The position numbers and the translations under genes are program-made. This document shows, piece after piece, positions 53-29,535 of a stretch of 32,602 nt of DNA. Origin of the DNA: an archaeon (GTDB taxonomy: Archaea > Iainarchaeota > Iainarchaeia > Iainarchaeales > 0-14-0-20-34-12); contig JBBSVU010000007.1 of the NCBI GenBank assembly GCA_038046645.1, forward strand, positions 1 to 32,602, in the 5' to 3' direction. The notes under the pieces were generated by a model. The model worked only from the letters and a program-made list of their open reading frames with translations, was not told where the DNA came from and did no database searches. How positions within the stretch are numbered: position 1 is the stretch's first letter; the number at the start of each line of letters is the position of its first letter.

Positions 53-1156
53 TTACTTTTTAGCAAAACCAGAATATAATTTTACGAATTCATTTATCCT
101 GTTCTTCCAGGAATATCTCTCTGCGCTATGCCTACTTATTTCTGACAGTCTCTTCTTGTCCTGCCTTGAAATTCCTAAAATTTGATTTGCTGCTTTTTCA
201 GGGTTTTCAAAATCAATTATAAATTCATTTCCGAAATCTTTTGCGAATTCTCTGAATTGCGAAATATCACTAAGCAAAGGAATGCAGCCAGAGGCCATGC
301 CTTCAACAATTGAAATCCCAAAACCCTCATAGGACGAAGCAGAAATAATATATTCTGCTTTAGAATAATATTCAAGCAGTTTTTCCCTTTGGAGCTCGCC
401 TACAAATATCACGTTCTTTTGAATATTGCTCCCAGTTACAAGCTCCTTGCATTTCTGCAGGCAATTATCAAAATCAGTCCCAATAATATGAAGCTTTGCA
501 TCAGGCATTAATTTTGACAAAAATGCAAATGTTTTAACAAGCAAATCAACCCTTTTGTTTGCACTAATTCGGCCAACAAACAAAAATGAGTTTTTTTCTT
601 TCCCTATTTTTATATTTGAGAAATCATCCAGGGAAATAGCATTCTCAATATGGATTAATTTTGAATCTGCAGATATTTTTTTGAATAATTCAAAATCCTG
701 CAAACTGTCAACAACTACAATATCCGCAAAATTAAAGAGAAATTTCTCAAAAAAATTGAAATAAATATTTTTCAGAAAACCGAGTTTTTTTGTGTGGAAG
801 ATTCCACCATGGGATTGCACAATGATTGGCTTATGGTGAAGGAATTTTGTCATAAGCAGGAAATCAGAAAAAAATCCTATTCCGTGAATATGCAACAAAT
901 CGCAATCTTTTATGTGGCTGAGCACTGAAGGCGCTATTTTGTAATATTTCAAATCAAAAAACGGTATTCTAATTATTTCCATATTGCTTAATTTAGCATA
1001 ATGTTCTAATTTCTGGCTTGAATTCGCGCATTTGTTTAAGCAGATAACCTTGCACTCAATTTGATTCTTTGAGAGCTCTTTGCAAAGATCTAAAGTAAAG
1101 GTTTCAATTCCCCCAATGCAAGGATAAAAACGATTAGTAATATGGGCTATTTTCAT
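53..1156 (-). CDS. Glycosyltransferase family 4 (GT-B) protein
   Basis: N-terminal MKIAHITNRFYPCIGGIE, FVGRISANKR, and the GT4 signature SSYEGFGISIVEGMASG. Confidence 0.93.
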   Translation of the reverse strand: MKIAHITNRFYPCIGGIETFTLDLCKELSKNQIECKVICLNKCANSSQKLEHYAKLSNMEIIRIPFFDLKYYKIAPSVLSHIKDCDLLHIHGIGFFSDFLLMTKFLHHKPIIVQSHGGIFHTKKLGFLKNIYFNFFEKFLFNFADIVVVDSLQDFELFKKISADSKLIHIENAISLDDFSNIKIGKEKNSFLFVGRISANKRVDLLVKTFAFLSKLMPDAKLHIIGTDFDNCLQKCKELVTGSNIQKNVIFVGELQREKLLEYYSKAEYIISASSYEGFGISIVEGMASGCIPLLSDISQFREFAKDFGNEFIIDFENPEKAANQILGISRQDKKRLSEISRHSAERYSWKNRINEFVKLYSGFAKK

Positions 1157-1246: not shown

Positions 1247-2392
1247 TCAGCTAAAAATAAATTTTAAGGCTTCAGGGAACAAGGTAAGCATTGACGGTTT
1301 CCTAAATATCTTGCCAACAAACTTTGTTGGATTATCCATATCGCCATAACTGGTCAGGAATTCCCCTAATCCTGCTTTTTTGGCCTTTTGGAATAGCTTT
1401 TCTGTCTTTTCCCTGCCAAGTGAATTAATATAGGAACGTATCTTCCAGTGCATAACAAGCTCCTTATTCAAGCCAGAAAGCATCTTCTCGTAATTCTCAA
1501 GCGGTTTTGAATTTAACAGATTTTCTGAGATTGCATTTGCTGCTGTTTCGGCTGCCCTTAACCCAAATATTATGCCTCCACCAGTGGTTGCCTTTGTTTG
1601 GAAGGCAGCATCCCCTACTAATAATTGATTGCTTAAAACAACATGTTTAAGCGGATGCCCTACAGGAATAATTGAACTAGTTTCAGAAATCTTTTCGAAA
1701 TCAAAATTTTTGCTTGCATAAAAAGAATCGAATGCACTTTTTGGGTTATTCCCTAATGTAACGCCAATGCCCAAATCAGCTTCTTTTTTTGAGTGAGGAA
1801 TTAACCAGGCAAAAAATCCCACTGCTTCCTTGCAAAGGTAAACATTTACTTTTCTGGGGTCAAAATCGCCTGAAACCATCTGTTGGTAGGCATGGACAAA
1901 CATATGGGTAGGGGCATTAAGATTCATTAATTCCCGGGTCCTTGATTGCACACCATCTGCGCCAACAACAATTTTAGATTTTACCATTGTCCCATGGTTG
2001 TCCTTCTGGTAAAAAACATTTTTGTCAGTAAAATTAATCAGTTTGGAATTAAAATCCACTTGGACATCTTTAGAGATTGCTTTTTTGTAAAGGTTTTTGT
2101 CAAATAATTCCCTATCAACCACATATGCAACAGGCCTTTTTCTCTCAACCGTGATTTTTGTGCCTTCAGGCGAAATTATATCTGCGCCATAAATTTCATT
2201 TAATAAAACACCATCAAGTTTTAAATCCAAATCATGGCAGCCGGATTCTGAAATAAGGCCAGAGCAATGCACTGGCACGCCCACTTCCGCGTGTTCCTCA
2301 ATCACTAAAGAAGAGATGCCGGAATCAGAGAGCTTAGAGGCCAAATGCAAACCTGCTGGCCCTGCCCCAACTATGGTAACTTGAATAGCCAT
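1247..2392 (-). CDS. Geranylgeranyl reductase family FAD oxidoreductase (digeranylgeranylglycerophospholipid reductase-like)
   Basis: GAGPAG dinucleotide motif, PVHCSGLIS, VVGADG, GFFAWLIP (YxWxFP-like), GDAAFQTKATTGGGI. Confidence 0.88.
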   Translation of the reverse strand: MAIQVTIVGAGPAGLHLASKLSDSGISSLVIEEHAEVGVPVHCSGLISESGCHDLDLKLDGVLLNEIYGADIISPEGTKITVERKRPVAYVVDRELFDKNLYKKAISKDVQVDFNSKLINFTDKNVFYQKDNHGTMVKSKIVVGADGVQSRTRELMNLNAPTHMFVHAYQQMVSGDFDPRKVNVYLCKEAVGFFAWLIPHSKKEADLGIGVTLGNNPKSAFDSFYASKNFDFEKISETSSIIPVGHPLKHVVLSNQLLVGDAAFQTKATTGGGIIFGLRAAETAANAISENLLNSKPLENYEKMLSGLNKELVMHWKIRSYINSLGREKTEKLFQKAKKAGLGEFLTSYGDMDNPTKFVGKIFRKPSMLTLFPEALKFIFS

Positions 2393-2475: not shown

Positions 2476-5448
2476 TTACCCTCTATATTTGAATTTCTTT
2501 CCGCTGGCAAAGTCCTCTACTGGATGTGAATCTTTATCCATTGAAAAGCCTGAATTCCCCTTAAAGGAATAGCCTTTTTGCCTTCTTCCCAATAATACAA
2601 TCCCTAAAATTAATACGATTAGGGCAATTACTACAATAGGCATCCACCAGGTGAATTTTAAATCAGGGAATTGGAAACCTGTTCCAGCAGATTGATTTGA
2701 GGAAAGCTTTTCTATAACATTTTCAGTTTCACTCAAAGCAACTGTTGGCGCAAATACTGCATTAAAGTCATCAGAGAACAAATTTACATCTTGATCCACT
2801 TTTTCCTTAATGTAATATGTGATTTCAGCACTATAAACAACGTTTGATGTGTCTACACTTTCATCTGCAAGGTTTGCTGTTGCATTACTGTCCAAATTAA
2901 CATCAACTGTTTCTTTAATCTTGGATATTCCTGGCAGGTTAATGGTGAATAATAATACCGGATCGGATTCCAAAACAGTAAAATTGTAATCTGAAACAAT
3001 GCTGTTAGCGTCCTTGGCAATCTCCTTAGGTATTACTTCAACTATATTGAGGTTTAAATCATATAAGTAATTCTCATCCCTTGCAATCTTAAGTGTAAAC
3101 CTCACATATTTATCGCTGATATTCTTATGTTTTACTTCGATGATTTTCATTTGTTTTGTCAATGAGATTTTATTAAGGGTAGAGGTAGCATCATCTAAAA
3201 TAGAAGAATCTGTTTTCAATTCTTTTAATTTTGCAACAAATTCAGCTTTGCCATAGGAAATTTCTTTTTCTGTAACCGTAACATCAAAGGATGATAAAAA
3301 TTCATCAAACAGTTTCTTTGCTTCCTCTGCTTTTGAATTAGCATCAGAATAATTGCTGTCGCTAAGGGCTGTGTCTGCAGAATTTAATGCCAAATTTGCC
3401 TGTGAAAGCATCAATGAAACATCCGCAGGTAATTCAATGCCAAAGCCGGTTAATTTGGCAATCTTTTCCTCTGCCACAGTTTTTTGTGATTTTACTGCAT
3501 CCACAACTGCAGCAGTGCTTACCTGCACAGGATTATCCAAATAAATAACCCTACTAGCTTCTGTGACATCCTCGGTTCCTCCATTGCCAAATGCCTTTAC
3601 TTTTAAGGTATATTTGCCGTATTTTGTTTCATCATAAGAATATTCATAAGCATAATTGCCTGCATCATCTGCTGAGCCAACTGTGCTTAATGCAGCATCA
3701 TCCAAAAAGAACAGGACCTTTTGAATCCCGCTGCTATCTGTTGCTTTAATGCTAAATTTAATTGGGCTGCTTGAGAAATGTTTTTCATCTGAATCCGGAT
3801 TTACCCAGGTAATTGCTGGTTTTTCAGTATCTGAAGAGGTTGTTGCGCTTGAAGCATTAGCTGCAGAGGTTGAAGTATCTGCGCTAGAACTGCCGGTTAC
3901 TGTTGCTGAAACAGTAGCACTGAATGCACCATAATTGCCAGCGTAATCCTTTGCCCTGACTTTGAAAGTATATGTGCCATTTGATTGGCTTGCGAATGAA
4001 TAACTTGTGCTTGCAGTATTGCCTTGGTTAATATCATTCTTGTACATTTCATACTCTTTTACTGGCGCACCAATTACGCTTGCTGCACCCCAACTCAAGA
4101 TAATAGTAGAGCCGGAAACGCTTGCGCTAGGCGTAGGGACAGAGGGCCCGTTCACATCATAATAAAATGCAACATTTGCATTCTTGTTGTTGTCCGCTAA
4201 ATCTAAAATTTTCAGGTAAACAGTCCTGTTGCCATCTGCATTTGTCGGGCAGCCGGTTGCTGATGCAATATTAAAGCTTGATTTCGTTGAAGCATATGTT
4301 TCTGGTGATGACCAACTTGAGTTATCACAAGAAAAGGCCATTCTCAAAGCTGCATTTGGGGTGTAATGTTCATTATCAAAACCATTAATGTCAAAAGTCG
4401 GGGTTGCTGTTATAACATAATTCTTATCAGAAGCAGCATAAGCTATGCTTGATGTTGCTAAGTTTATTGTTGAAATTGTTGGTGCTTGTGTATCTATAGT
4501 GTAATAAAAACCAATATTCAGGTCATTGCCTGCAACATCCACAGCATTAACATCAATCCAAACATTGCCATCGGAAAATGTGCTTGTCGGGGTAAATGTC
4601 AAGACATAGCCATTTGTGTCTGTCCTTGCAGTCTTTGTCAATGTTCCGCCATAAGAAACACCGCTTGCGTTTTTTACAACCATTGAAACATCAGCTTGGT
4701 TTAAACCAGAAAGTGCATCAGCAATGTTTACATCAATTGAAGCACTGGTTTTTTTATGCACATTTTTGTCTGAAGAAATTGTTGGGTCTGTTTTATCAAT
4801 TCTGACATAAATTGTGTTTGTATCACTTTGGTTTCCTGCCAAATCAACACAGTAAAAAGCCAAGGTATGGTTTAAGTCTGAAGAAATTGAAACGCCTGTT
4901 GAAGCAGAATATGTTGCAGAAGAGCCATCAAGTGTATAAGTAATGGTTGATGCTCCGCTTGCATTTCCTGTTCCGGATTGTGAATTTAAATCATTGCAGT
5001 ATAAATGAACAGTAGCATTAACATTCTGCCAGCTTTTATTGTAATCTGCATTTACATCTGGCTTTTTGTCATCAACCATAAAAGAGGAAGAATGAACATA
5101 TGCGAAAGCGCCTGTTTCATCAAAAACATTAATGTCTAAAGTATAATTTCCATCAGCAAGGGAAATGAAATTATAATTAAAAGTATAAGTGCCGGAAGAA
5201 TTATTCGAGTCTTTCAGATTAACATCATTGAAATATACTACGCTAGTTCCTGTGGAATCTGCGATATTCAAATCTGCCAAAGCAACAGCTGAAGCATTAT
5301 CATCGGTCCAGGCAAAAACAATATTTGATGCTGCTTTGAAATAGGTATTTGTTGCTGGCTGTGAAATGCTCAGGGTCATTGTGCTTGCAAATGCTGCTGA
5401 ACAGAATAGGATAAAAACACTTAAGATTAACAAAAATTTTCTCATCAT
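2476..5448 (-). CDS. Large membrane-anchored cell-surface protein with Ig-like/fibronectin-III repeats
   Basis: Signal peptide (MMRKFLLILSVFILFCSAAFA); repeated DxAGN and YTFKVRAKD Ig/FN3 signatures; Ser/Thr/Ala linker; helical stalk; C-terminal TM helix (WWMPIVVIALIVLILGIVLLG) plus basic tail; GAGGGG-like RBS upstream. Confidence 0.85.
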   Translation of the reverse strand: MMRKFLLILSVFILFCSAAFASTMTLSISQPATNTYFKAASNIVFAWTDDNASAVALADLNIADSTGTSVVYFNDVNLKDSNNSSGTYTFNYNFISLADGNYTLDINVFDETGAFAYVHSSSFMVDDKKPDVNADYNKSWQNVNATVHLYCNDLNSQSGTGNASGASTITYTLDGSSATYSASTGVSISSDLNHTLAFYCVDLAGNQSDTNTIYVRIDKTDPTISSDKNVHKKTSASIDVNIADALSGLNQADVSMVVKNASGVSYGGTLTKTARTDTNGYVLTFTPTSTFSDGNVWIDVNAVDVAGNDLNIGFYYTIDTQAPTISTINLATSSIAYAASDKNYVITATPTFDINGFDNEHYTPNAALRMAFSCDNSSWSSPETYASTKSSFNIASATGCPTNADGNRTVYLKILDLADNNKNANVAFYYDVNGPSVPTPSASVSGSTIILSWGAASVIGAPVKEYEMYKNDINQGNTASTSYSFASQSNGTYTFKVRAKDYAGNYGAFSATVSATVTGSSSADTSTSAANASSATTSSDTEKPAITWVNPDSDEKHFSSSPIKFSIKATDSSGIQKVLFFLDDAALSTVGSADDAGNYAYEYSYDETKYGKYTLKVKAFGNGGTEDVTEASRVIYLDNPVQVSTAAVVDAVKSQKTVAEEKIAKLTGFGIELPADVSLMLSQANLALNSADTALSDSNYSDANSKAEEAKKLFDEFLSSFDVTVTEKEISYGKAEFVAKLKELKTDSSILDDATSTLNKISLTKQMKIIEVKHKNISDKYVRFTLKIARDENYLYDLNLNIVEVIPKEIAKDANSIVSDYNFTVLESDPVLLFTINLPGISKIKETVDVNLDSNATANLADESVDTSNVVYSAEITYYIKEKVDQDVNLFSDDFNAVFAPTVALSETENVIEKLSSNQSAGTGFQFPDLKFTWWMPIVVIALIVLILGIVLLGRRQKGYSFKGNSGFSMDKDSHPVEDFASGKKFKYRG

Positions 5449-8193: not shown

Positions 8194-8901
8194 ATGGTTA
8201 ATGAAAAACAGCTTATTTTGTCAATAATTATCCCGGTATTCAATGAAGAGAATACTGTTGATAAAATAATAAACCGGGTAAAAGAGGTTGACCTCTCCAA
8301 ATACGGCATAAGCAAAGAGATAATTGTAATTGATGACGGCTCAAGAGACAACACCTTCCAGGAAATAAAAAAAATAAAAGGGATTACTGCACTTAAACAC
8401 GATAAAAACTATGGAAAGGGAAGGGCAATAAGGACAGGCCTCGCGGAAGCAAAAGGGCAGATTTTTCTGATTCAGGATGCTGACCTTGAATATGACCCAA
8501 ATGATTATATTAAATTGATTGAGCCAATAATAGAAGGTAAAAATGATGTTGTATATGGGTCAAGATTCCTGAATAAAAGCAATGTCATACCCTTGACAAA
8601 ATTCAAAATCGGGAATTATTTGCTTACCTTCTTCGCAAACATATTATACGGGGCAAACATCACTGATGAAGCTACAGGATACAAAGTTTTTACAAAAAGG
8701 GTGAAAGATTCAATAAATCTTAGGTGTGAAAGGTTTGAATTTTGCCCTGAATTTTTTGCAAAAGTGAGAAAAAAAGGGTTTAAGATATATGAAGTCCCAA
8801 TAAGTTATAAATACCGGACAAAAAGCCAAGGCAAAAAAATAAATTGGAAAGACGGCATAATAGCATTGGCAACTTTAATTAAATACAGGTTCTCAGATTA
8901 A
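8194..8901 (+). CDS. Glycosyltransferase family 2, polyprenol/dolichol-phosphate sugar synthase-like
   Basis: [47 protein letters not shown]. Confidence 0.92.
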
Positions 8902-8919
8902 TTATTAAAGGGTGGAATA

Positions 8920-9810
8920 TTGCAGCATGTTAAATGTAATCTGTGCGGGGCTGACAACTATAAAATAGTTTACCCTGCCAAGAATGTTCAGGTGAAGGCT
9001 AGGATTTACAGTGCATCCAGCACAAATATAAATACTGACCAAATAGTTAAATGCAAAAAGTGCGGGTTAATATATGTCAATCCGCTAAGGCCGCACAAAG
9101 AGATAATTGAAGAATATGCAACAGGTTCAGATGAGACATTTGTCTCGCAAAATGATGCCAGGGCAGATACATTTAAAAAATATTTAAAAATATTAGATTC
9201 AAAATTCCCAAAAAAAGGCAAAGTGCTTGATATAGGCACTGCAGGCGGGGCATTTTTAAAAGCAGTAAAGGAAGATAACTGGGACTGCGAAGGCATTGAG
9301 CCAAACAAATGGATGGCTGAATGGGCCATGAAAAGATATGGGGTAAAAATACATATAGGGACATTAGATGATTTCAAGGGCAAAGATGAAACCTATGATG
9401 TAATAACCTTGTGGGATGTTCTGGAACATGTGCCTGACCCTATGAAAACCTTGGAGAAATGCAACAGCCTGCTAAAAAAAGACGGATTGCTGGTAGTTAA
9501 TTATCCGGACATAGGGAGCATAATCTCAAAGATTATGCGCAGCAAATGGGTCTTTTTGTTAAGTGTACATCTATTTTATTTTGACAGGAAAACAATTAAG
9601 GAATACCTTAAAAAGGCAAAATTCGATATCCTTGAAATAAAGCCGCATTTCCAGAAGCTGGAATTAGGCTATCTGGCCCAAAGGATTTCCCCTTACAATA
9701 AAACAATTTCAAAAATTGCAACCAAGGCAGTGGGCACAATAGGGCTTTCAAAAGTGCAAATACCATATTGGCTAGGCCAAACATTGGTAATTGCCACAAA
9801 GAAAAAATAA
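8920..9810 (+). CDS. Class I SAM-dependent methyltransferase with N-terminal Zn ribbon
   Basis: CNLC...CKKC, VLDIGTAGG, YDVITLWDVLEHVPDP; TTG start preceded by GGTGGA RBS. Confidence 0.88.
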   Translation: MQHVKCNLCGADNYKIVYPAKNVQVKARIYSASSTNINTDQIVKCKKCGLIYVNPLRPHKEIIEEYATGSDETFVSQNDARADTFKKYLKILDSKFPKKGKVLDIGTAGGAFLKAVKEDNWDCEGIEPNKWMAEWAMKRYGVKIHIGTLDDFKGKDETYDVITLWDVLEHVPDPMKTLEKCNSLLKKDGLLVVNYPDIGSIISKIMRSKWVFLLSVHLFYFDRKTIKEYLKKAKFDILEIKPHFQKLELGYLAQRISPYNKTISKIATKAVGTIGLSKVQIPYWLGQTLVIATKKK

Positions 9811-9855
9811 ATAAAAAACCCAAATAAATGGACAAATTTGTTATGAAATTTATCT

Positions 9856-11259
9856 GTGATGAATATGCTTAAAGTTCTGTTAATAAATCCCTCAGAATCG
9901 CTTGCTGTCTACAATGTATCCAAAATAAAGATGGCATTGTCAGAAATACCTTTGTTATCGCTTGCTGTTTTAGGCGGCAACCTGCTAAGAAATAATGTAG
10001 AAACAGAAATTTTGGATTTATCAGTAAGCGAAAAGCCAAATGATGATTTAATTAACAAATTTAATGAATTTAAGCCTGATATTGTTGGCATAACCTTTAC
10101 TACACCACTTTTTAGCGAGGCAAAGAGGATTGCTGAGAAATTAAAAGAATTAAACCCAAAAGTAATTTTAGTGTGTGGTGGTGTTCACACATCTTCAATG
10201 CCTGTAGAAACATTAAAAGAAAGCCTTTTTGACATCGGGGTTGTTGGGGAAGGGGATGATACTATTGTAGAGATAGCCCAGAATAAACCTTGGGATATGA
10301 TTAAGGGGATAGTTTACAGGAAAGGAAATGAGATAAGGGTAAATCAGCCAAGAGAATTAATACAAAGCCTTGATTCGCTTGCTATGCCTGCCTGGAATCT
10401 TTATGATATACATAAATATCATTCTTCAAAACTTACCAGCAGAAAAAATCCTGTTGGCGCGATAGAAACAAGCAGGGGTTGTGTATTCGGATGCATTTAT
10501 TGCAATAAAAGCATATTTGGGAGAAGATTCCGTTTTAAAAGCCCTGAAAGAGTGCTTACTGAGATAGAATACATGCTAAGCAAGGGATTTAATGAAATTC
10601 ATGTCTGGGATGACAATTTTGTAACTAATTTGGACAGGGCAAAAAAAGTATGCAAAATGATTATTGAGAAAAAATTGAAGTTTAGCTGGTGCCTTGCCTG
10701 CGGAGTAAGGGTAGATTGTGTTGATAAAGAATTCTTAGAACTTGCAAAGAAAGCAGGTTGCTATGCTGTTTACTTTGGCGTTGAAACCGGCGATGCAGAA
10801 ATAATGAAAAGGATAGACAAGGGCATTACTTTGGACAAAGCAAGAACCGCATTCAAGCTTGCAAAAGAATCAAACCTAGAAACAGTCGGGTTTTTTATGA
10901 TAGGATTGCCAGGGGAAACAATTGAAACAATGGAAAAAACAATCAATTTTGCAACCGAGCTTGATCCTGATTATGCAAAGGTAACAATTACTGTCCCCTA
11001 TCCGTCAACCAAATTGTATAGTTATCTTGAAGAAAAGGGGCTTATAAAAAACAAGGACTGGGATAAATATAATTTCCACACGCCTTCAAAGGTTTATGAC
11101 CATGAAACCCTGGATTGGGAAACACTCAATAAATATTATGACCTTTTTTATAAGAGATTCTATTTCAGGCCAAAATACCTGATAAGAAGGATAATAAAGG
11201 GCATAAAAAGCGGAAGATTAATCATGGAATTGTATTATGCAATGAAAACATGGGGCTAA
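9856..11259 (+). CDS. B12-binding domain radical SAM enzyme
   Basis: N-terminal B12-binding domain (PDIVGIT, GGVH, GEGD), TSRGCVFGCIYC cluster motif, FGVETG, FMIGLPGET. Start may instead be ATG 9859 or 9865. Confidence 0.92.
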   Translation: MMNMLKVLLINPSESLAVYNVSKIKMALSEIPLLSLAVLGGNLLRNNVETEILDLSVSEKPNDDLINKFNEFKPDIVGITFTTPLFSEAKRIAEKLKELNPKVILVCGGVHTSSMPVETLKESLFDIGVVGEGDDTIVEIAQNKPWDMIKGIVYRKGNEIRVNQPRELIQSLDSLAMPAWNLYDIHKYHSSKLTSRKNPVGAIETSRGCVFGCIYCNKSIFGRRFRFKSPERVLTEIEYMLSKGFNEIHVWDDNFVTNLDRAKKVCKMIIEKKLKFSWCLACGVRVDCVDKEFLELAKKAGCYAVYFGVETGDAEIMKRIDKGITLDKARTAFKLAKESNLETVGFFMIGLPGETIETMEKTINFATELDPDYAKVTITVPYPSTKLYSYLEEKGLIKNKDWDKYNFHTPSKVYDHETLDWETLNKYYDLFYKRFYFRPKYLIRRIIKGIKSGRLIMELYYAMKTWG

Positions 11260-11260
11260 C

Positions 11261-12403
11261 ATGGAATTAAATGGGAAAAACCAAAAACAAATTTTAAAAG
11301 ATACAATTATCAGAAATAAATATCTTTTTATCATCCTGATTCTGGCGCTTTTTTTAAGGGTGTATGGTTTAAGCACAATGGGGTTGGGGGTAGATGAAAC
11401 CCTTACAATTAAACAAGCGCAGGATTTTTCACAGATATCCTATCTTGCAAAAACAGTAGAATTCAGCCCTCCTTTGTACTACTTAATTGTATTCACAATA
11501 TTCCAAGCAACGCATGATTTCTTTTATGTGAGATTATTCTCCGCAATAATGGGCATTATTTTAGTATTGCTAATTTTTATTCTAACTAGGGAAATATTCG
11601 GGGAGAATACTGCAACAATTGCAGCATTCCTTGCAGCAATAAACCCGAGCCTAATCGCCTACTCCCATTTAATGAGAAATTACGAATTCTTCTTTGTGTT
11701 AATTTTTTTGACAATTATTTTTACAAAAAAGTATGCTAAAACAGGGAAAAATCTTGCAAATCTTGCTGCCTCGAATGTGATTATGCTGCTGACAGCATAT
11801 CACGGCTTTTTTATCTTGGCAGCTGAATGCCTATTTTTGAAATTAAGCAAGGTGAAAAATCGGATTATAATAGGGCTAATTGCAATTGCAGTAATAGCTC
11901 TTCTGCCACTTATTCCGCTTTTACTCAAAAGAACCGCAGATTGGAATGCGATATATGCTAAAATATACTTTTTAAATTTAGGCCAGATTGCTATTGATTT
12001 CTTTTACATGCTTTACAAATTATCTATTGGCGGCCTTACCCTAAAAACAGCAATAGCTATAACCCCTGCATTATTTATTGTAATTCCCGTAGCCCTATTT
12101 TTATTCTTCAAAGGCATTTGGATTGAAAAAGGCAGGGATTATGTTCTGCATTATTTTTTACTTATACCCGCGGGGATTGCATTAGTTTTCGGCCTAACAG
12201 GTTCTCTTATGTTCAATCACAAATATTTGGCATACCTAATTCCAATATTTCTGATTTTTGTGGCAAACGGACTTGCAAAAATAAAAAATCAGAAACTGCA
12301 AAAAATTTTACTTGCAATAATTATAGTGTGCTGGTTTGTGGCAATATTGACTTTTTATTCAATCAGCAAAACAGACGGCTGGAATGCTTATTTGGGATTA
12401 TAA
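11261..12403 (+). CDS. GT-C superfamily membrane glycosyltransferase (GT39/GT83, PMT/ArnT-like)
   Basis: LALFLR TM1 followed by a DE motif (GVDE), SPPLYY, RLFSAI, AFLAAINP; about 10 TM segments. Confidence 0.8.
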   Translation: MELNGKNQKQILKDTIIRNKYLFIILILALFLRVYGLSTMGLGVDETLTIKQAQDFSQISYLAKTVEFSPPLYYLIVFTIFQATHDFFYVRLFSAIMGIILVLLIFILTREIFGENTATIAAFLAAINPSLIAYSHLMRNYEFFFVLIFLTIIFTKKYAKTGKNLANLAASNVIMLLTAYHGFFILAAECLFLKLSKVKNRIIIGLIAIAVIALLPLIPLLLKRTADWNAIYAKIYFLNLGQIAIDFFYMLYKLSIGGLTLKTAIAITPALFIVIPVALFLFFKGIWIEKGRDYVLHYFLLIPAGIALVFGLTGSLMFNHKYLAYLIPIFLIFVANGLAKIKNQKLQKILLAIIIVCWFVAILTFYSISKTDGWNAYLGL

Positions 12404-23569: not shown

Positions 23570-24847
23570 GTGCATTATTTTATTGTGATTTCAAAGAGTG
23601 TTTTGAGGACAGTGATTGCAGACCAGCTTAAGGAGATGGAGTCTTTAAAGGATTCTGTGCCAAGAACGGTTTTTTCCACTGCTGTTTCTTATAGCGGGGC
23701 TTCTGCTTTTGTTGTCAAGGGAGTGAGAAGATGCGGCAAAAGCACATTGCTAAAGCAGCTGATTAAGGCAAAATTTGAAAACGATTTTTTTTACTTCAAC
23801 TTTGATGACGAAAGAATAGAAGATTTTAAGTCTGAGGATTTTCAGCCACTAATGGAGACACTGATTGAAGCGTTTGGAGAAAAGAAGAACGTCTTTTTTG
23901 ATGAAATTCAGAATATTAAAGGATGGGAATTATTTGTCAACAGGATATTAAGGCAGGGTTACAAAGTTTTCATTACTGGTTCTAATGCAAACCTGTTAAG
24001 CAAGGAACTTGGAACACACTTGACAGGAAGGCATGTGGATTTGGAGCTTTACCCTTTTTCTTTTGCTGAATTCCTAAGAGCGAAAAAAATAGAGGTTCCG
24101 AAGAAAGGAATTTATTCCACCGAGCAAAAAGCCTTGTTTTCAAAGGAATTCAAGGAATATTTTTCGAAAGGGGGAATGCCTGAGGCTGTTGTTTTCTCAA
24201 ACGAAGCGGTTCTAACAACACTACTCACAGACATAATTAGAAAAGACATCTCTGAGAGATATGACATTAGAAAGCCAAGCGAACTGAAAACAGTGTTAAA
24301 ATTCTTAATAGCCAATTCTGCAAACCCTATAACTTACAGGTCTATCAAAAACAATTTTGACATTCAAAGTGCCAATACCATACAAAAATACATTGAATAT
24401 GCTGAAGAAACATACCTTGTCTTCACTGTCCGAAGGTTTGAAAAGAAAATAAAACGATTCGACAAAAACCCAAAAAAGATTTACTGCATTGATAACGGCG
24501 TAATAACAAAAAACACGCCAAGCATTACAGAAAAAAAAGGAGCTCTCTTGGAAAATATGGTTGCAGTTCACCTGAAAAGGCTTGGAAAAGAATTCTATTA
24601 CTTCAAAACAAGAAACAGCGAAGCCGACTTTGTGGTTCCAGCAGAAAAACAAGCCATACAAGTATGCTATGAACTCGACAACAAAAACAAAGAACGCGAA
24701 ACAAAAGGGCTCATTGAAGCAACGCATGAAACCAAAGCAACCAGCGGCCTAATACTAACACTCGAACAAGAACAAGAAATAACAATCCAAAACAAAAAAA
24801 TAATAGTAAAACCAGTTTGGCAATGGCTGCTGGAAAAAGAATCCTGA
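23570..24847 (+). CDS. AAA+ ATPase (AAA_14) with DUF4143 / C-terminal PD-(D/E)xK-like domain
   Basis: Walker A GVRRCGKS, FNFDDER, Walker B FFDEIQ, ITGSN, LTGR, GGMPE, KKIYCIDNG, LLEN, EADF..IQV. True start is probably the GTG at 23585, given the TATA position. Confidence 0.92.
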   Translation: MHYFIVISKSVLRTVIADQLKEMESLKDSVPRTVFSTAVSYSGASAFVVKGVRRCGKSTLLKQLIKAKFENDFFYFNFDDERIEDFKSEDFQPLMETLIEAFGEKKNVFFDEIQNIKGWELFVNRILRQGYKVFITGSNANLLSKELGTHLTGRHVDLELYPFSFAEFLRAKKIEVPKKGIYSTEQKALFSKEFKEYFSKGGMPEAVVFSNEAVLTTLLTDIIRKDISERYDIRKPSELKTVLKFLIANSANPITYRSIKNNFDIQSANTIQKYIEYAEETYLVFTVRRFEKKIKRFDKNPKKIYCIDNGVITKNTPSITEKKGALLENMVAVHLKRLGKEFYYFKTRNSEADFVVPAEKQAIQVCYELDNKNKERETKGLIEATHETKATSGLILTLEQEQEITIQNKKIIVKPVWQWLLEKES

Positions 24848-25039: not shown

Positions 25040-27754
25040 ATGGTTTTCAATCATTTGGAAATTGAGAAGAAATGGCAGGATGCTTGGAAAAAAGAAAAAA
25101 TCTTTGAAGCAAAGGAAGATTCCAATAAGAAGAAATATTATGTTTTGGAAATGTTCCCCTATCCAAGCGGAAAACTGCACATGGGGCATGTGAGAAATTA
25201 TGCAATTGGGGATTCAATTGCAAGATTCAAAAGAATGCATGGCTTTAATGTTTTATATCCAATGGGCTATGATGCGTTTGGGTTGCCTGCAGAGAATGCT
25301 GCAATAAAAAGCAAGGCAGACCCAAAGGAATGGACTTATTCCAGAATTGAAGAAATGAAGGATCAGCAGGAACGCTTGGGATTCAGCTATGATTGGAGCA
25401 GAATGGTAAAAACCTGTGACCCTGAATATTACAAATGGAACCAATGGATATTTCTGCAATTTTTGAAAAAAGGCCTTGTTTATAAGAAAAAAGCGCTTGT
25501 GAATTGGTGCAATTCCTGCGGCACTGTTTTGGCAAATGAGCAGGTTGAAGACGGGAAATGCTGGCGCTGCAAGAATGAGGTTATGCAAAAGGAATTGGAA
25601 CAATGGTTTTTGAAAATAACAAAATATGCTGATGAACTGCTTGAAGATTTAAAAAAATTGGAAGCTGGTTGGCCTGACCGTGTACTAATAATGCAGGAGA
25701 ATTGGATTGGCAAAAGCCAAGGTTTAGAAGAATACTGGCAGGTTGACGGCATGGATTTGAAATTAAGTACTTTTACTACTTGGCCACACACATCGTTTGG
25801 TGCAACATTTATGGTAATTGCCCCTGAACACCCATTAATTGAAAAACTGGTGAAGGACACAAAATATGAAAAGGGTGCGAAAGAGTTTGTTGAAAAATTG
25901 AAAAAACAGAAGCTTGAGGACAGGGTAAATGTTGAAAAGGTAAAAGACGGATTTTTTACCGGCAGATATGTGATTAACCATTTAAATGGAAGAAAAATGC
26001 CTGTTTACATAGCAAACTTTGCGATAATGGATTATGGCACTGGAATTGTAAAATGCACGCCTACGCATGACCAAAGGGATTTTGAATTTGCGGAAAAATA
26101 CGGTTTGGAAAAAGTCCTTGCAATTAAGCCAAAAGATAAAGAAATGAAAGAAAGCGGGATGAAAGAGGCTTACACAGGGGAAGGGGTAATGATAAATGCC
26201 GGGGAATTTACTGGCATGGATACTTTAAAGGCAAGAAAGGCAATTGCTGATTATACAATTAAAAAAGGCAATGGAAAATATGTTACAAATTATAAAATTA
26301 GGGATTGGTTGATTTCAAGGCAAAGGTTTTGGGGCACGCCTATTCCAATAATTTACTGCGAAAAATGCGGGATGTTGGAAGTGCCTGAAAAGGATTTGCC
26401 TGTTTTGTTGCCTGCTAAAGCAGAATTTACAGGCATGGGAAATCCTCTTGACAAGGCAAAAGAATTTGTTGAGGTTAAATGCCCAAAATGCGGGACAAAG
26501 GCAATAAGGGAAACAGACACAATGGATACATTTGTTGATTCTTCATGGTATTTCATGAGGTATTGCTCGCCAAAAGAGGATAGGCAGATATTTGACAAAA
26601 ATAAAGTGAATTATTGGATGCCAGTAAACCAATACATTGGCGGGATAGAACATGCGATCCTGCATCTGTTATATGCAAGGTTTTTCTGCAAGGCATTGCG
26701 CGACCTTAATCTGGTTAAATTTGAAGAACCGTTTGAAAGATTGCTGGCACAGGGCATGGTATTGAAAGATGGGATAAAAATGTCAAAAAGCATCGGGAAT
26801 ATTGTAAATCCCGAAGAGATAATACAAAAATACGGTGCCGATACTGCAAGATTATTTATTTTGTTTGCTGCCTCGCCGGAAAAGGAATTGGAATGGAATG
26901 ATAAAGGGGTTGAATCCTGCCATAAATTCTTGAATAAATTTTACTATATTGTTGAAGAGAACAAGGATAAAATTTTAGATAAAAAAGAATTCAAATTTGA
27001 CATTAAGAAAATGAATTCAAAGGATAAATTTATGCTAAGCAGGGCAAATTCAACCATAAGAAGTGTAACTGAACATATTTTGCTGTTTGATTTCAATTTT
27101 GCAATCCGCGATTTGATGAAATTCATTGATGAATTAAGCAAATATGAAAACCCAAATAAAGAGATATTTTCATTCGGTGTAAAAAATTCAATTTTATTGT
27201 TAAGCCCTTTTGCCCCACATTTGGCTGAAGAATTATGGCAAACTATTGGGCAAAAAGGATTTGTTTCAATTGCAGAATGGCAGATTGCCAATGAAGAATT
27301 AATAGATCCTGCAATGGAAGAGATGCAGAATTTCATTGATGCAATAAGGGCAGACATTATGCACATAAAGGAACTGGCAAAGATTGAAAAGCCGAAAAAG
27401 ATTGCATTATATGTTGCGCCAGAATGGAAATATTATGCATTGCAGGCAATAGCAAAGGCATGCGAAGAAAGGCCTGATTTCAATGCAGCATTAAAGGCTG
27501 TGATGGCCGATAAAAAACTTGAAAATTACAGAAAGGATTTGCCTGCATTAGTGAAAACACTTGTGAATAAAGTTGCAGAGTTAAGGGAAAGAAAAAGGAT
27601 TGATGAATTTACCATACTTGCTGAGGCAAAAGATTCTTTGGCTAAAGAATTTGATTGTGAAATTGCTGTTGAAAAAGCTGATGGTGCGAAATTCGACCCA
27701 GCAAACAAAGCAAAGAATGCTTTGCCGTTTAAGCCTGCAATTTATTTGGAATAA
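25040..27754 (+). CDS. leuS: Leucine--tRNA ligase (bacterial-type core, archaeal-type C-terminal domain)
   Basis: [56 protein letters not shown]-terminus [22 protein letters not shown]. Confidence 0.97.
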
Positions 27755-27774: not shown

Positions 27775-29535
27775 TTAATTAACAGTGCTCTTTACACTTA
27801 TTACTGATTTAACCTTCTTCAAATCAGAAATAAGCACTTCAACTTCTTTTTTATTCCTAACATCAACAAGGAACTCTGCCCTGACATTGTTTTCACCACG
27901 AGGGTCAAACATAGTTACATTCTTGATTGATATACCTTTATTTGCTATAACCCTGGTGAGATCTGCAAGCAGGCCCTTTCTATCAACACAATCAACTATT
28001 ACTGCGGCTGGGAATGTAATATCTATGCGGCTTGTTGGCTTCAATTTAAGATCTTTCATGATTAATTCCTTTACTCTCGGGGATTTGACATAATTAAGCC
28101 ACTCCTCATGGGCAGTAACATTCTTCTTAAATCTGACTTTTACAATATCCCCTGTATCAAGTGACTGCCAGAAAGGTGCGTCTTTCCCATTAACCTTTGC
28201 ACAGCACATCCTTGATGCTTTTTTCGGTTTTAATTTATATGCAAAATCAATAACAGAGGAATGCACTGGCAATCGGATAATTTCCCCTTTTTCAGTAAAA
28301 ACATAAATATGAAGCTCCAAAAAGTCAAGCTTCAATGCATCAACAAAGCTTTTGTCATCCTTCATTAAACTGAAACTTTTCAAATCAGACCATTTCTTCT
28401 TGAGGTTGTTTATTATTGCTTTCTTTTCGTTGAGGATTTTTATTAAGCCATATTTTGTAATGTCATCCATTGCCTTGGTCCTTATCCTGGCCCTTAAAAG
28501 TGAATCCCTGCAAACAATAGTCGTATGCAATCCTGAATAAATCAATTGCGGGGTAGCAATATAATCTCGCATCATCTGCGGAATAGGGTGATACAAGCTG
28601 TGAATTAAGCCTAAAGTAACATAACAATCAGAATTATTTTCAGTAAGGATATTCAATGAGACAAAATCATAAAGCTCATCCTTTGACCTTCCCAATTTGT
28701 ACAATTCACGGTAAATTGAATAATAGGGCTTAGGCTCGTTGGCAAAAGAAATCTTTATCTTGTATTTTTTGGATTCATCTTTAAGTACCTTAATTATGCT
28801 GCTTATCAGCAAGGTTTGTTTTTTTCTTTTAGAATCAGTAAACTTCTTTACTATTTTATGCTCTTTTGGATAGGCATACGGGAAAGAGTAACCTGCCAAT
28901 TGGTCTGCAATTGGGTGCAGGCCAATTATCTGGGCCAAGGGAACATAAATATCAAGTATTTGCATTGAAATTCTTTGCTGCTGTTCTTCAGATAAATGCT
29001 CTAGTGTTGAGGCATTATGCAACTTGTCTGCCAATTTTATAATTAAAATACGTATATCCCGTATTGATGCATTCATCAGTATTTTCAAATAATAAGGATA
29101 AGCATCTTTGCCTTTCAATTCAGACCTTACTGAACGATATTTCAATTTGCTTACGCCTTTAACAAGAGTATAAACAGTATCACCAAAATCAGCACGTAAA
29201 GCATCTTCATCAATATAAGTATCTTCAATAACATCATGCAATAATCCTGCAGCAACAAGTTCTGAATCAGCACCAAGCTCTGCAAGTGTATTTGCAGTGC
29301 CATAAAGATGCACAAAATAAGGTTCTCCAGAAGCCCGTAACTGGCCTGCATGCTGCTTTAGCGCAAAATAATATGCTTTTTTTATAAGGCCTGAATCAAC
29401 TCTTTTTTCCATTTCAAAAAGGTGGTTAATGAATACCATTGGATTCCTGACAAGCTTTAACTCAATGGCATGGTTCTTTCTTACTTTTTGGATAAGAACT
29501 TTAAGTTCATGTGCCCCAAAAATCATATGCGCCAT
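27775..29535 (-). CDS. RelA/SpoT homolog (HD - degenerate synthetase - TGS - ACT)
   Basis: RASGEPYFVH, AGLLHDVIEDT, IKLADKLHN; DYIATP; TGS IYVFTEKG..LP...SVIDFAY..AKVNG; ACT DRKGLLADL. Confidence 0.9.
   Translation of the reverse strand: MAHMIFGAHELKVLIQKVRKNHAIELKLVRNPMVFINHLFEMEKRVDSGLIKKAYYFALKQHAGQLRASGEPYFVHLYGTANTLAELGADSELVAAGLLHDVIEDTYIDEDALRADFGDTVYTLVKGVSKLKYRSVRSELKGKDAYPYYLKILMNASIRDIRILIIKLADKLHNASTLEHLSEEQQQRISMQILDIYVPLAQIIGLHPIADQLAGYSFPYAYPKEHKIVKKFTDSKRKKQTLLISSIIKVLKDESKKYKIKISFANEPKPYYSIYRELYKLGRSKDELYDFVSLNILTENNSDCYVTLGLIHSLYHPIPQMMRDYIATPQLIYSGLHTTIVCRDSLLRARIRTKAMDDITKYGLIKILNEKKAIINNLKKKWSDLKSFSLMKDDKSFVDALKLDFLELHIYVFTEKGEIIRLPVHSSVIDFAYKLKPKKASRMCCAKVNGKDAPFWQSLDTGDIVKVRFKKNVTAHEEWLNYVKSPRVKELIMKDLKLKPTSRIDITFPAAVIVDCVDRKGLLADLTRVIANKGISIKNVTMFDPRGENNVRAEFLVDVRNKKEVEVLISDLKKVKSVISVKSTVN

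Follow-up and report, generated by a model that had tools for sequence, protein, structure and literature searches.

D-x-N excess in large surface proteins of Iainarchaeota and Micrarchaeota: a possible asparagine-modification motif

The window, the whole 32,602-nucleotide stretch of archaeal DNA analysed here, contains a gene (P0001) whose product carries Asp two residues before Asn (D-x-N) far more often than its composition predicts. The question raised by this locus is whether the tripeptide is an accident, a structural or inherited habit of a surface protein, or a motif that is read by a modifying enzyme. P0001 is a C-terminally anchored, multi-Ig-domain cell-surface protein of the Iainarchaeota (Diapherotrites, DPANN). 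Its layout and neighbouring genes are given in Table 1.

Table 1. Features of the P0001 gene, its protein and its surroundings in the window
Feature	Coordinates	Strand	Remarks
Whole gene P0001	2476..5448	minus	990-aa type-I surface protein with 33 D-x-N
Residues 1-22, signal-peptide-like hydrophobic segment	5383..5448	minus	From sequence; model helix 2-16
Residues 23-434, four Ig-like beta-sandwich domains (Big_13)	4147..5382	minus	22/33 D-x-N
Residues 435-520, FN3 / Y_Y_Y domain	3889..4146	minus	1 D-x-N in P0001
Residues 521-639, disordered Ser/Thr-rich linker and Big_7 Ig-like domain	3532..3888	minus	0 D-x-N in P0001
Residues 640-930, three long helices, then alpha/beta domain	2659..3531	minus	10 D-x-N
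Residues 931-990, C-terminal TM helix and basic cytoplasmic tail	2479..2658	minus	Model helix 936-955; 0 D-x-N
Geranylgeranyl-reductase-family FAD protein	1247..2392	minus	84 bp downstream, same strand; TIGR02032 191 bits vs cut-off 158.8
GT4 glycosyltransferase	53..1156	minus	Weak Agl16-like match
Glycosylation-type cluster	8194..12403	plus	GT2, methyltransferase, B12-radical SAM protein, PMT_2-type GT-C

Pfam gathering scores were exceeded by Big_13 (PF19077; 46.2 bits, cut-off 27, in four stretches), Y_Y_Y (PF07495; 35.3 bits, cut-off 26.6, residues 470-516) and Big_7 (PF17957; 35.5 bits, cut-off 24.1, residues 544-617). The FN3 / Y_Y_Y domain is the best conserved part of the family, and the family profile matched the FN3 chains of titin and chitinase A1 with E-values of 1e-22 to 1e-59. 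The alpha/beta domain carries a conserved E-x-IPKEFA...DP motif and was found in DPANN relatives only. An OmpL47-type beta-barrel domain (NF047446) was a weak match only, at 27.3 bits and below the NCBIfam cut-off of 40.

Exact counting gave 33 D-x-N against 6.13 expected for a protein of 990 residues with 80 Asp and 76 Asn, which agrees with the hand count of the initial annotation (about 33 of about 76 Asn, with about 6 by chance). Chance or composition might seem adequate for a protein this rich in Asp (8.1%) and Asn (7.7%), and an artefact at the DNA level could have the same effect. However, none of 20,000 whole-protein shuffles reached the observed count (mean 6.10, sd 2.28, maximum 16), which bears out the predicted excess over shuffled controls, and block shuffles of 10-50 residues, in which local composition was kept, averaged 6.6-8.5 and never exceeded 18. 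D-x-N ranked above every other residue pair at gaps 0-3 in P0001 (z 10.9), with counts for other spacings and directions of DN 5, DxxN 4, DxxxN 8, NxD 4, DxD 3 and ExN 0. In the nucleotide sequence of the gene, GAYNNNAAY was found 33/0/0 times in the three sense frames and 2/1/1 times in the antisense frames, and both Asp codons and both Asn codons were in use at the D-x-N sites. The gene was without long DNA repeats; its repeats were confined to short families (19-37 nt, 73-92% identical) and a single 23-nt tandem array. Because the excess is confined to the reading frame, draws on mixed codons and has no DNA repeats behind it, it is a protein-level signal. A DNA repeat, a methylation-type motif and a mutational bias derived from DxD were rejected on the same grounds, NxD being unenriched as well. 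Together with the recurrence of the pattern in dozens of independent proteins, described below, these controls refute chance, composition or a DNA-level artefact, and we regard such an origin as practically out of the question. No enrichment was seen in the 26 remaining ORFs of the window, which hold 21 D-x-N in total against 20.5 expected.

Within P0001, residues 49-472 hold 23 of the sites, 22 of them in the four N-terminal Ig-like domains and one (residue 472) in FN3; residues 697-894, in the helical and alpha/beta parts, hold another 10, and residues 473-696 none. The spread over unrelated domains that had been noted initially thus holds for the Ig-like and the helical/alpha-beta parts, and fails for the stretch between them and for FN3 with its single site. 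A similar unevenness was found across the family. D-x-N was enriched 2.4-4.4x in the four Ig-like domains, 2.0x in Big_7, 2.07x in the helical part and 3.73x in the C-terminal alpha/beta part; FN3 showed no enrichment (17 vs 19.8 expected, 0.86x), and two LamG_3 domains within D-x-N-rich proteins had 0 sites. Binding or enzymatic domains (LamG, deacetylase) were poor in the motif and spacer-like Ig domains rich.

The segment comprising the TM helix and tail had 2 D-x-N against 2.4 expected across the family. ORFs of the window and of 25 related loci, which were found from a 12-sequence alignment, were sorted by crude hydrophobicity rules of our own for signal peptides and TM helices, with at least one wrong assignment (the window GT2 was called secreted); by these classes, 228 cytoplasmic ORFs carried 133 D-x-N against 143.0 expected (0.93x), multipass membrane ORFs 14 against 17.2, and 56 small secreted or single-TM ORFs outside the family 36 against 36.2. 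The enrichment is confined to the extracytoplasmic parts of surface proteins. It is uneven within the ectodomains and not secretome-wide, a general secretome trait being rejected by the small secreted ORFs; equal enrichment in cytoplasmic proteins, which the initial annotation named as a refutation, was not found. A topological contrast within giant proteins of the family was also considered. Their D-x-N-poor C-terminal parts are merely poor in D and N, and therefore give no test of topology.

To see how far the pattern extends, we turn to the relatives of P0001. The D-x-N count exceeded three times the expectation in 39 of 149 relatives, and those high-ratio relatives that bear a name belong to the Diapherotrites (Iainarchaeota) or the Micrarchaeota. 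As initially supposed, the host is a DPANN archaeon and the enrichment extends across a lineage. Pooling of 40 high proteins gave 1547 D-x-N against 339.8 expected, whereas 80 low proteins, which were chosen for a ratio under 1.2 and have the same Ig-like domain homology, gave 274 against 490.2 (0.56x). Asp stood at -2 of 36% of all Asn in the high set and of 3.7% in the low set. Big_13-type matches of the first search (n=28, excluding P0001) had ratios of 0-2.2. Because relatives with the same Ig-like homology fall to that low level, the fold does not require D-x-N, and the excess is lineage-specific rather than fold-specific. Among orthologues the ratio spans 0.3 to 5.7 and differs between sister lineages. 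Judged from these sequences, the excess appears to run through the large surface proteins of the Iainarchaeota and Micrarchaeota as a trait of these lineages.

Such a distribution could have been inherited without any present function, if an ancestral Ig-like module laden with D-x-N had spread among DPANN surface proteins by duplication and domain shuffling. The high proteins were all recovered via homology to P0001 domains, and some common ancestry therefore exists. Equivalent sites recur in domains D1, D3 and D4 of P0001 as a DGN...D[IV]N pattern before and in one strand, two DIN sites lie within a common 24-nt stretch that is 92% identical, and high D-x-N is clustered on the family tree (11 changes vs 18.1 in shuffles; FastTree). 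Descent of one module does not account easily for the enrichment of the unrelated alpha/beta domain and helical part, or for P0146, in which D-x-N extends along ~2,800 residues with only 5 stretches alignable to P0001. At ~25% identity, drift should moreover have erased a two-residue pattern, yet more than a third of the Asn in the high set retain the -2 Asp; most D-x-N sites are lineage-specific gains, and particular residues are specifically excluded at x (see below). We consider an inherited, functionless pattern unlikely.

The grammar of the motif was analysed in the high set, where D-x-N reached 4.55x and the related pairs ExN (0.61x), DxD (0.52x), NxD (0.77x) and NxN (0.55x) were all depleted. 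Pro was nearly absent from x of D-x-N (0.13x, vs 0.90x in the D-x-N of low proteins), and stood at the middle position of other pairs in the high set at 0.78x (DxS/T), 1.11x (S/TxN) and 1.63x (NxD), so that its exclusion is 6-12 times stronger than in other polar i/i+2 pairs of the same proteins. Asp, Arg and Lys, like Pro, were specifically excluded at x. Pro was also reduced at +1 (0.38x) and Asp at +2 (0.48x). Pro at i+1 is common in Asx-Pro turns; because it is almost excluded here, an Asx turn is an unlikely explanation. The grammar of D-x-N is sequon-like: it is strictly directional, strongly favours Asp and not Glu at -2, and almost excludes Pro at x.

This likeness raises the possibility of a bacterial-type extended sequon, in which a PglB-like oligosaccharyltransferase would use only the D-x-N-x-S/T subset and other D-x-N would be incidental. 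Nine of the 33 sites in P0001 have this form, against 1.3 in shuffles, and Pro is disfavoured at x and +1 as it is in the PglB sequon (an excerpt of PMC7226087). Given D-x-N, though, about 7 such sites are expected from a Ser+Thr content of 21%, and at 1543 sites of the high set Ser at +2 was at 1.1x and Thr unenriched. The initial statement that most D-x-N lack Ser/Thr at +2 is therefore confirmed, the minority that have it being about background. N-x-S/T occurred 19 times in P0001 (15.7 expected), stood at 1.23x in the high and 1.22x in the low set, and was uncorrelated with the D-x-N ratio (rho = -0.01). These last two results also reject D-x-N as a substitute for N-x-S/T. Since Glu at -2 is in addition depleted, whereas PglB takes D or E, the extended sequon is very improbable.

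The chief competing explanation is an idiom of the protein surface that is structural or cation-binding and involves no covalent modification. Asp(i)/Asn(i+2) pairs exposed on outer strand faces and at strand starts would hold Ca2+/Mg2+ or clip together through side-chain hydrogen bonds, and so serve rigid stalk domains or lattice or host contacts. Enrichment indeed peaks in strands (4.89x), and successive D-x-N prefer even spacings of 6, 8, 10, 12 and 14 residues. The P0001 model places Asp right before a strand and Asn within it at 9 of the 33 sites, and all 8 sites that lie fully in strands have V, L or I as x; because x is aliphatic there, Asp and Asn are placed on the exposed strand face, exposure being read from the alternation pattern of strands in the model. 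Among solved structures, the closest in sequence to residues 63-316 are the BIg domains of the Ca2+-binding adhesin SiiE (2yn3/2yn5; E 3e-12, fold match at 21% identity), and Ca_tandemer (NF033510), a Ca2+-stabilised tandem-repeat adhesin model, was matched weakly (22.6 bits, below the NCBIfam cut-off of 50). The poverty of LamG, deacetylase and FN3 domains and the richness of spacer-like Ig domains would also recall Ca2+-rigidified adhesin extenders. Finally, hot spots occur at residues 49-51 (11/26 orthologues) and 99-101 (15/26), and some are common to 10-17 of 38 orthologues.

Other properties of the sites fit such an idiom poorly. DxD, NxD, ExN and DxNxD are normally tolerated at metal sites, or preferred there, and these combinations are depleted or at chance in the high set, as is Asp at +2; DxNxD occurs twice in P0001 (0.5 expected). 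D-x-N falls below expectation in the low relatives despite their Ig-like homology. Helices are enriched as well (44 vs 19.0, 2.32x, close to coil at 2.24x), though i and i+2 point to different helix faces, and the strength of Pro exclusion relative to other polar pairs would not be foreseen. Most positions are unconserved: across 38 orthologues, a D-x-N site recurred at exactly the same column in 12.6% of the other members on average, where random placement would give 2.7%, and across 27 orthologues 117 of 188 columns were singletons. Comparison of these sequences suggests that the density of D-x-N is kept and its exact position is not. The initial annotation had offered Ca2+ or surface-lattice motifs as its alternative; this option is weakened by the depleted pairs and the positional turnover, and we regard it as somewhat unlikely.

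The surface gene sits in a dolichol/glycosylation gene neighbourhood. In 17 of the 25 related loci, a geranylgeranyl-reductase-family orthologue follows downstream of the family gene. In the plus-strand cluster of the window, the GT2 is AglJ-like or dolichyl-phosphate hexose transferase-like and the PMT_2-type GT-C is Agl23-like, the specific NCBIfam names in this cluster all scoring below cut-offs. In eight related loci (L001-L008), Pfam placed the family gene among genes for cis-prenyltransferase, GT2/GtrA/GT1/GT8, flippase-type and sugar-nucleotide enzymes, the scan covering the 112 ORFs of these eight loci, out of 331 in all 25, as well as 9 selected large locus ORFs and the window PMT_2 ORF. 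For AglB, the W[WYF]DxG motif was found in none of 358 ORFs from the window and the 25 loci (409 kb). By phmmer, the window PMT_2 ORF was not similar to the large multipass ORFs found in L001 and L002, nor were these similar to each other. A conserved GT-C partner was rejected, the GT-C-like neighbours being non-orthologous between loci. One ORF, L002:3469-5055, is PMT_2-like by language-model features only (score 0.99).

We tentatively propose, as a possibility held with some reserve, that D-x-N is a motif particular to the Iainarchaeota and Micrarchaeota at which Asn is modified, probably by some form of glycosylation. D-{P}-N would be a short linear acceptor motif, which an enzyme of these lineages would recognise on an extended chain outside the membrane in order to modify the Asn, most likely by transferring to it a glycosyl group carried on dolichol. 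What selection preserves on the exposed, fast-evolving domains would in that case be how many sites there are and not where exactly they lie. All three elements of this proposal are inferred: the modification of Asn, its nature as a glycan and the enzyme behind it. Lineage specificity, the extracytoplasmic limits and the precedent of PglB for Asp at -2 are in favour of it. The exclusion of Pro, the direction, the choice of Asp and not Glu, the turnover of positions, the enrichment in all types of secondary structure and the dolichol/glycosylation neighbours are more in keeping with a sequon that an enzyme reads than with a structural site. Against it stand the lack of AglB in the 409 kb, the non-orthologous GT-C-like neighbours, the small secreted ORFs at chance, the FN3 and LamG_3 domains, the strand peak and even spacings that fit a structural role, the shared hot spots, and the resemblance of the N-terminal domains to Ca2+-binding SiiE. 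The initial idea of D-x-N modification independent of Ser/Thr is thus retained for its sequon-like properties and its Ser/Thr independence, and falls short where the enzyme is concerned, the loci examined having yielded no AglB and no conserved GT-C partner. A bolder version is that the Iainarchaeota and Micrarchaeota own an extracytoplasmic Asn-modifying system with Asp-{Pro}-Asn as its +2-independent acceptor, selected onto about one third of the Asn of large surface proteins. Such a system might employ a divergent AglB or an unrelated dolichol-dependent transferase; in this full form we find the proposal doubtful.

If D-{P}-N does act as an acceptor, it would be the first code for N-linked modification to dispense with a +2 hydroxyl, would revise a supposed universal of oligosaccharyltransferase recognition, and would open a sequence-only route to the surface glycoproteomes of uncultivated DPANN archaea. 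The Asp-{Pro}-Asn system, if real, would be a second, lineage-specific N-glycosylation code. Should the motif instead be a cation-binding idiom, it would represent a new and very dense construction of rigid or adhesive archaeal surfaces. On either reading, the variation in ratio among orthologues is a natural experiment for tracing the responsible gene by phylogenetic profiling.

No description of the D-x-N trait was found in the literature searched, a search that did not extend to Nakagawa et al. 2024 (N-glycosylation, Nanobdellati). Among the closest known counterparts is the Campylobacter PglB sequon D/E-X-N-X-S/T, with which D-x-N shares an Asp at -2, the avoidance of Pro and the occurrence in exported proteins. 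According to an excerpt of PMC7226087, bacterial PglB reads Asp at -2 through R331, Pro is disfavoured at the intervening positions of its sequon, and the characterised STT3, AglB and PglB enzymes all bind the +2 Ser/Thr via the WWD motif. D-x-N differs from that sequon in having no +2 Ser/Thr preference, in not accepting Glu as a substitute and in its archaeal hosts; the lack of a +2 preference would therefore require an unprecedented specificity or a different enzyme. EF-hand, dockerin and FG-GAP loops (D-x-[DN]-x-D-G) also start with D-x-N, yet the Asp that they have at +2 is depleted here and many D-x-N sites lie inside beta-strands. With the Ca2+-rigidified BIg extenders of SiiE, P0001 shares Asp-rich tandem Ig-like domains, whereas its D-x-N positions are mostly unconserved, D-x-D and N-x-D are depleted, and the motif reaches non-Ig domains. 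Compared with N-x-S/T glycoproteins, N-x-S/T is no more frequent than in relatives lacking the trait and D-x-N is conspicuous instead; a resemblance to archaeal surface glycoproteins of the AglB pathway lies in the dolichol and agl-like genes nearby. For the DPANN archaeon Nanobdella aerobiophila, surface proteins with an Ig fold and a C-terminal anchor have been proposed (an excerpt of bioRxiv 10.1101/2023.10.27.564410). In predicted architecture, and in that respect only, P0001 resembles a SlaB-like S-layer stalk, with a signal peptide, beta-sandwich domains, a helical segment and a C-terminal TM helix.

Of the 76 Asn in the surface protein encoded in the window (P0001), which also contains 80 Asp, 33 follow an Asp at position -2 (D-x-N), where 6.13 are expected from composition. 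The initial annotation, which had counted about 33 of about 76 against a chance value of about 6, was exact. Shuffling the protein 20,000 times gave a mean of 6.10 (sd 2.28) and a maximum of 16, and block shuffles that keep local composition (10-50 residues) gave means of 6.6-8.5 and never exceeded 18; chance is thereby effectively excluded, with a probability close to nil. The excess was limited to one spacing and one order (DN 5, DxxN 4, DxxxN 8, NxD 4, DxD 3, ExN 0), and D-x-N was the most deviant residue pair at gaps 0-3. In the gene, GAYNNNAAY was found 33/0/0 times by frame in sense and 2/1/1 in antisense, Asp and Asn were each encoded by both of their codons, and DNA repeats were only short and weak. 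The excess is a property of the protein and not of the DNA. No excess was observed in the remaining 26 ORFs of the window (pooled 21 vs 20.5 expected). A 24-nt stretch encoding T-x-D-I-N-x-F-D recurs with 92% identity at two D-I-N sites (residues 105 and 353) and marks the shared ancestry of D1 and D4, the first and last of the four Ig-like domains.

Features of the window, of P0001 and of related loci, with family-wide D-x-N ratios (observed/expected) for the parts of P0001
Feature	Position	Strand	Remarks
P0001	2476-5448	-	990 residues
N-terminal segment			hydrophobic, signal-like
Ig-like domains D1-D4			next; Big_13 above cut-off, OmpL47-type and Ca_tandemer weak, below cut-offs; ratios 3.95, 3.85, 4.38, 2.42
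FN3/Y_Y_Y	residues 435-520 (3889-4146)		after D4; ratio 0.86
Linker			next; disordered, Ser/Thr-rich; ratio 1.24
Big_7			after linker; ratio 2.0
Helical part			three long helices after Big_7; ratio 2.07
Alpha/beta domain			C-terminal, after helices; ratio 3.73
TM helix and basic tail			end of protein; ratio 0.84 (2 vs 2.4 expected)
24-nt stretches	4375-4398, 5119-5142		D-I-N sites
GT4	53-1156	-	Agl16-like, below curated cut-off
Geranylgeranyl-reductase-family FAD protein	1247-2392	-	84 bp downstream of surface gene; TIGR02032 191 bits, above cut-off
agl-like cluster	8194-12403	+	GT2, methyltransferase, B12-binding radical SAM (HpnJ/BchE-like), PMT_2-type GT-C
AAA_14 + DUF4143 ATPase	23570-24847	+	
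AAA_14 + DUF4143 ATPase	31492-32547	-	AAA_14 part truncated relative to other copy
Leucyl-tRNA synthetase	25040-27754	+	bacterial-type, TIGR00396 leuS_bact 965 bits, above cut-off; C-terminal part matches archaeal model
RelA/SpoT-family protein	27775-29535	-	HD, TGS and ACT domains
RelA/SpoT homologue	L008, 7108-8982		
Four consecutive long ORFs	L011, 9488-20699		
Large multipass ORFs, 526-608 aa	L001, 1394-3004; L002, 3469-5055; L017, 15936-17516; L020, 14634-16460		no Pfam match
LamG_3 domains	P0086, residues 135-289; P0078, residues 825-986		D-x-N-rich relatives of P0001

An exhaustive profile search recovered 2415 relatives of P0001. Among the best 149, all recruited by similarity to P0001, so that common D-x-N may have lifted their scores, the ratio was bimodal (median 0.98; 55 above 2 and 39 above 3). 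The 39 relatives above 3 together with P0001 (high set) held 1547 D-x-N vs 339.8 expected (4.55x) and 80 relatives below 1.2 (low set) 274 vs 490.2 (0.56x), pooled values that describe the two modes and do not test for them, as the sets were chosen by the ratio itself. Asp stood at -2 of 36.1% of Asn in the high set and 3.7% in the low set, and Asn at +2 of 37.5% and 3.0% of Asp, respectively. High proteins such as P0146 (129 vs 22.9 expected), P0071 (96 vs 16.7) and P0045 (109 vs 31.5) have diverse architectures, polysaccharide deacetylase, LamG and DUF2341 among them, and in the majority the N-terminus is hydrophobic and a TM segment lies at the C-terminus. Of ten that were looked up, six had a source name: three were labelled 'Candidatus Diapherotrites archaeon', one 'Candidatus Micrarchaeota archaeon', one 'archaeon' and one, uninformatively, 'hypothetical protein'. 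Apart from P0001, the first search gave 28 Big_13-type hits, whose ratios were 0-2.2; the motif is therefore not required by the fold. Since Iainarchaeota also include low members, e.g., P0108 ('Candidatus ainarchaeum sp.', 0.28), the trait varies within the phylum.

The family sharing the architecture of P0001 has ~900-1060 residues and 22-29% identity to it in alignment. Scanning reference genomes with its conserved C-terminal motif [IV]E[IV]IPKEF yielded 25 loci, mostly Candidatus Iainarchaeum/ainarchaeum, archaeon GW2011_AR10 or Candidatus Forterrea by record title, which assigns the window to an Iainarchaeota (Diapherotrites, DPANN) archaeon. A bioRxiv S-layer survey includes an Iainarchaeota S-layer protein among its entries. 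From the loci and the window (409 kb), 358 ORFs were called and classed by our own simple hydrophobicity rules, which are crude (the window GT2 was classed as secreted): non-family ORFs were at 0.93 when cytoplasmic (228 ORFs, 133 vs 143.0), 0.81 when multipass (41, 14 vs 17.2), 1.0 when secreted/single-TM below 590 aa (56, 36 vs 36.2) and 1.8 at 590 aa or more (5, 32 vs 17.4), and family ORFs at 3.19 when secreted (18, 273 vs 85.7) and 2.36 when other single-TM (8, 45 vs 19.0). The excess thus belongs to large surface proteins and not to the whole secretome. In the comparison of secreted with cytoplasmic proteins proposed by the initial annotation, the excess was absent from cytoplasmic proteins and also from small secreted or single-TM ones. 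In the four-ORF run of L011, a family member was at 2.1x and a 915-aa ORF contained a reductase homologue. The run also includes two ~930-aa surface proteins at 2.8x and 2.4x, so that the trait reaches non-family surface proteins in the same genome.

The grammar of the motif was scored over 1543 sites of the high set. Glu did not substitute for Asp (ExN 0.61x), Asn was not replaced (DxD 0.52x, DxS 0.73x, DxQ 0.60x; DxT at background, 1.06x), and the reversed NxD was not enriched (0.77x). At x, Phe, Gly and Leu were favoured (~2x) and Pro (0.13x), Asp (0.16x), Arg (0.23x) and Lys (0.41x) disfavoured; Pro at +1 was at 0.38x. Middle Pro was not excluded from other pairs of the same set (DxS/T 0.78x, S/TxN 1.11x, NxD 1.63x) or from low-set D-x-N (0.90x), making its exclusion specific to high-set D-x-N. 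No preference for Ser/Thr at +2 was found over these sites (Ser 1.1x), which bears out the earlier claim of independence from +2 Ser/Thr. Canonical N-x-S/T was alike in both sets (1.23x high, 1.22x low) and did not correlate with the D-x-N ratio within the family (rho = -0.01). Accordingly, D-x-N neither replaces the canonical sequon nor falls within bacterial D/E-x-N-x-S/T, and a bacterial-type extended sequon is very improbable and effectively excluded.

An AlphaFold2 model of P0001 was built from 44 relatives (mean pLDDT 82.8). Among solved structures, the nearest relatives are generic tandem Ig/FN3 arrays and, for residues 63-316, the Ca2+-binding adhesin SiiE. In the model, 13 sites are coil, 8 wholly in-strand and 3 helix, and at 9 sites Asp lies right before a strand and Asn within it; x is Val, Leu or Ile at all eight in-strand sites, so that D and N face outward. 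When model secondary structure was transferred to 38 orthologues, an approximate mapping, D-x-N was at 4.89x in strand (203 vs 41.5), 2.24x in coil (241 vs 107.5) and 2.32x in helix (44 vs 19.0). Successive sites prefer even spacings. FN3 is the best conserved part of the family and is not enriched; the two LamG_3 domains contain no D-x-N, and in a deacetylase domain the motif is half as dense as in the remainder of its protein. The exemption of FN3 and LamG_3 suggests interfaces or binding surfaces that need to stay motif-free. The chief rival explanation, in which exposed strand faces bear a structural or cation-binding idiom, draws on this exemption, the strand bias, the even spacing and the resemblance to SiiE; depleted DxD, NxD and ExN, the helix enrichment and the turnover of positions count against it, and we regard it as possible but rather unlikely.

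In 27 orthologues D-x-N occupied 188 alignment columns, 117 of them in a single sequence, and of the P0001 sites only residues 49-51 (11/26) and 99-101 (15/26) were widely common. Over 558 sites in 38 orthologues, on average 12.6% of the other sequences had a given site in its exact column vs 2.7% for random placement within the same domain, although alignment error at ~25% identity may make sharing look too low; hot spots were common to 10-17 of the 38. This indicates some inheritance, yet the majority of sites turn over. In a FastTree phylogeny of 54 orthologues, the high state clustered (11 changes vs 18.1 when shuffled; 0/500 shuffles so low), and the trait was graded, with a ratio of at least 1.7 in 48/54. 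An inherited motif-laden module without present function is placed third, as improbable.

A reductase orthologue (E <=1e-80) lies downstream of the family gene on the same strand in 17/25 loci (L001-L007, L009-L014, L018-L020, L023); its substrate could be membrane lipids or a dolichol carrier. A UppS-type cis-prenyltransferase is frequently close to the pair. L003, L004 and L012, whose contig titles name Chloroflexi, Chloroflexota and Falkowbacteria, contain an Iainarchaeota surface-protein gene with the reductase downstream and look mis-binned; DUF192 flanks are kept in L003 and L004, L004 also has small-multidrug-export and cis-prenyltransferase genes, and orthologue ratios are low in L004 (1.3) and L012 (0.5). 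Pfam scanning of eight loci (112/331 locus ORFs; 9 further selected locus ORFs were also scanned) revealed cis-prenyltransferase, DUF192, type-IV-pilus-type ATPase and small-multidrug-export-family genes around the family gene, together with numerous genes for glycosylation (GT2, GtrA, GT1, GT8, flippase-type Polysacc_synt, GDP-mannose dehydratase, epimerases). In the agl-like cluster next to the surface gene, the window GT2 is AglJ-like or dolichyl-phosphate-hexose-transferase-like and the PMT_2 ORF Agl23-like, with all specific NCBIfam names below cut-offs. This context fits a glycoprotein made via dolichol carriers and is silent on which Asn is used. No WWDxG-type motif was found in the ORFs of the 409 kb, and GT-C-like ORFs compared between loci had no mutual similarity. 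The multipass ORFs of L001 and L002 adjoin glycosylation genes and are dissimilar to each other; that of L002 appears PMT_2-type GT-C-like by language-model features alone (score 0.99).

Because the same folds occur without D-x-N in other lineages, protein physics alone cannot explain the motif, and it must be read by something specific to this lineage. We tentatively place first a lineage-specific modification of Asn, most likely a glycan from a dolichol carrier, in which an enzyme would recognise D-x-N as a linear motif on the extended chain. The traits expected of a motif read in this way are strict directionality, the requirement for Asp over Glu and Asn over Asp, the near absence of Pro between them, turnover of positions, enrichment whatever the final secondary structure, and limitation to extracytoplasmic parts. 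The principal difficulty is that all STT3-family enzymes characterised so far bind the +2 hydroxyl through the WWD motif (PMC7226087), whereas D-x-N sites are indifferent at +2. Asn modification is placed first because the traits of the motif are enzyme-like and Asp at -2 has a precedent in PglB, which reads this residue through R331 (PMC7226087).
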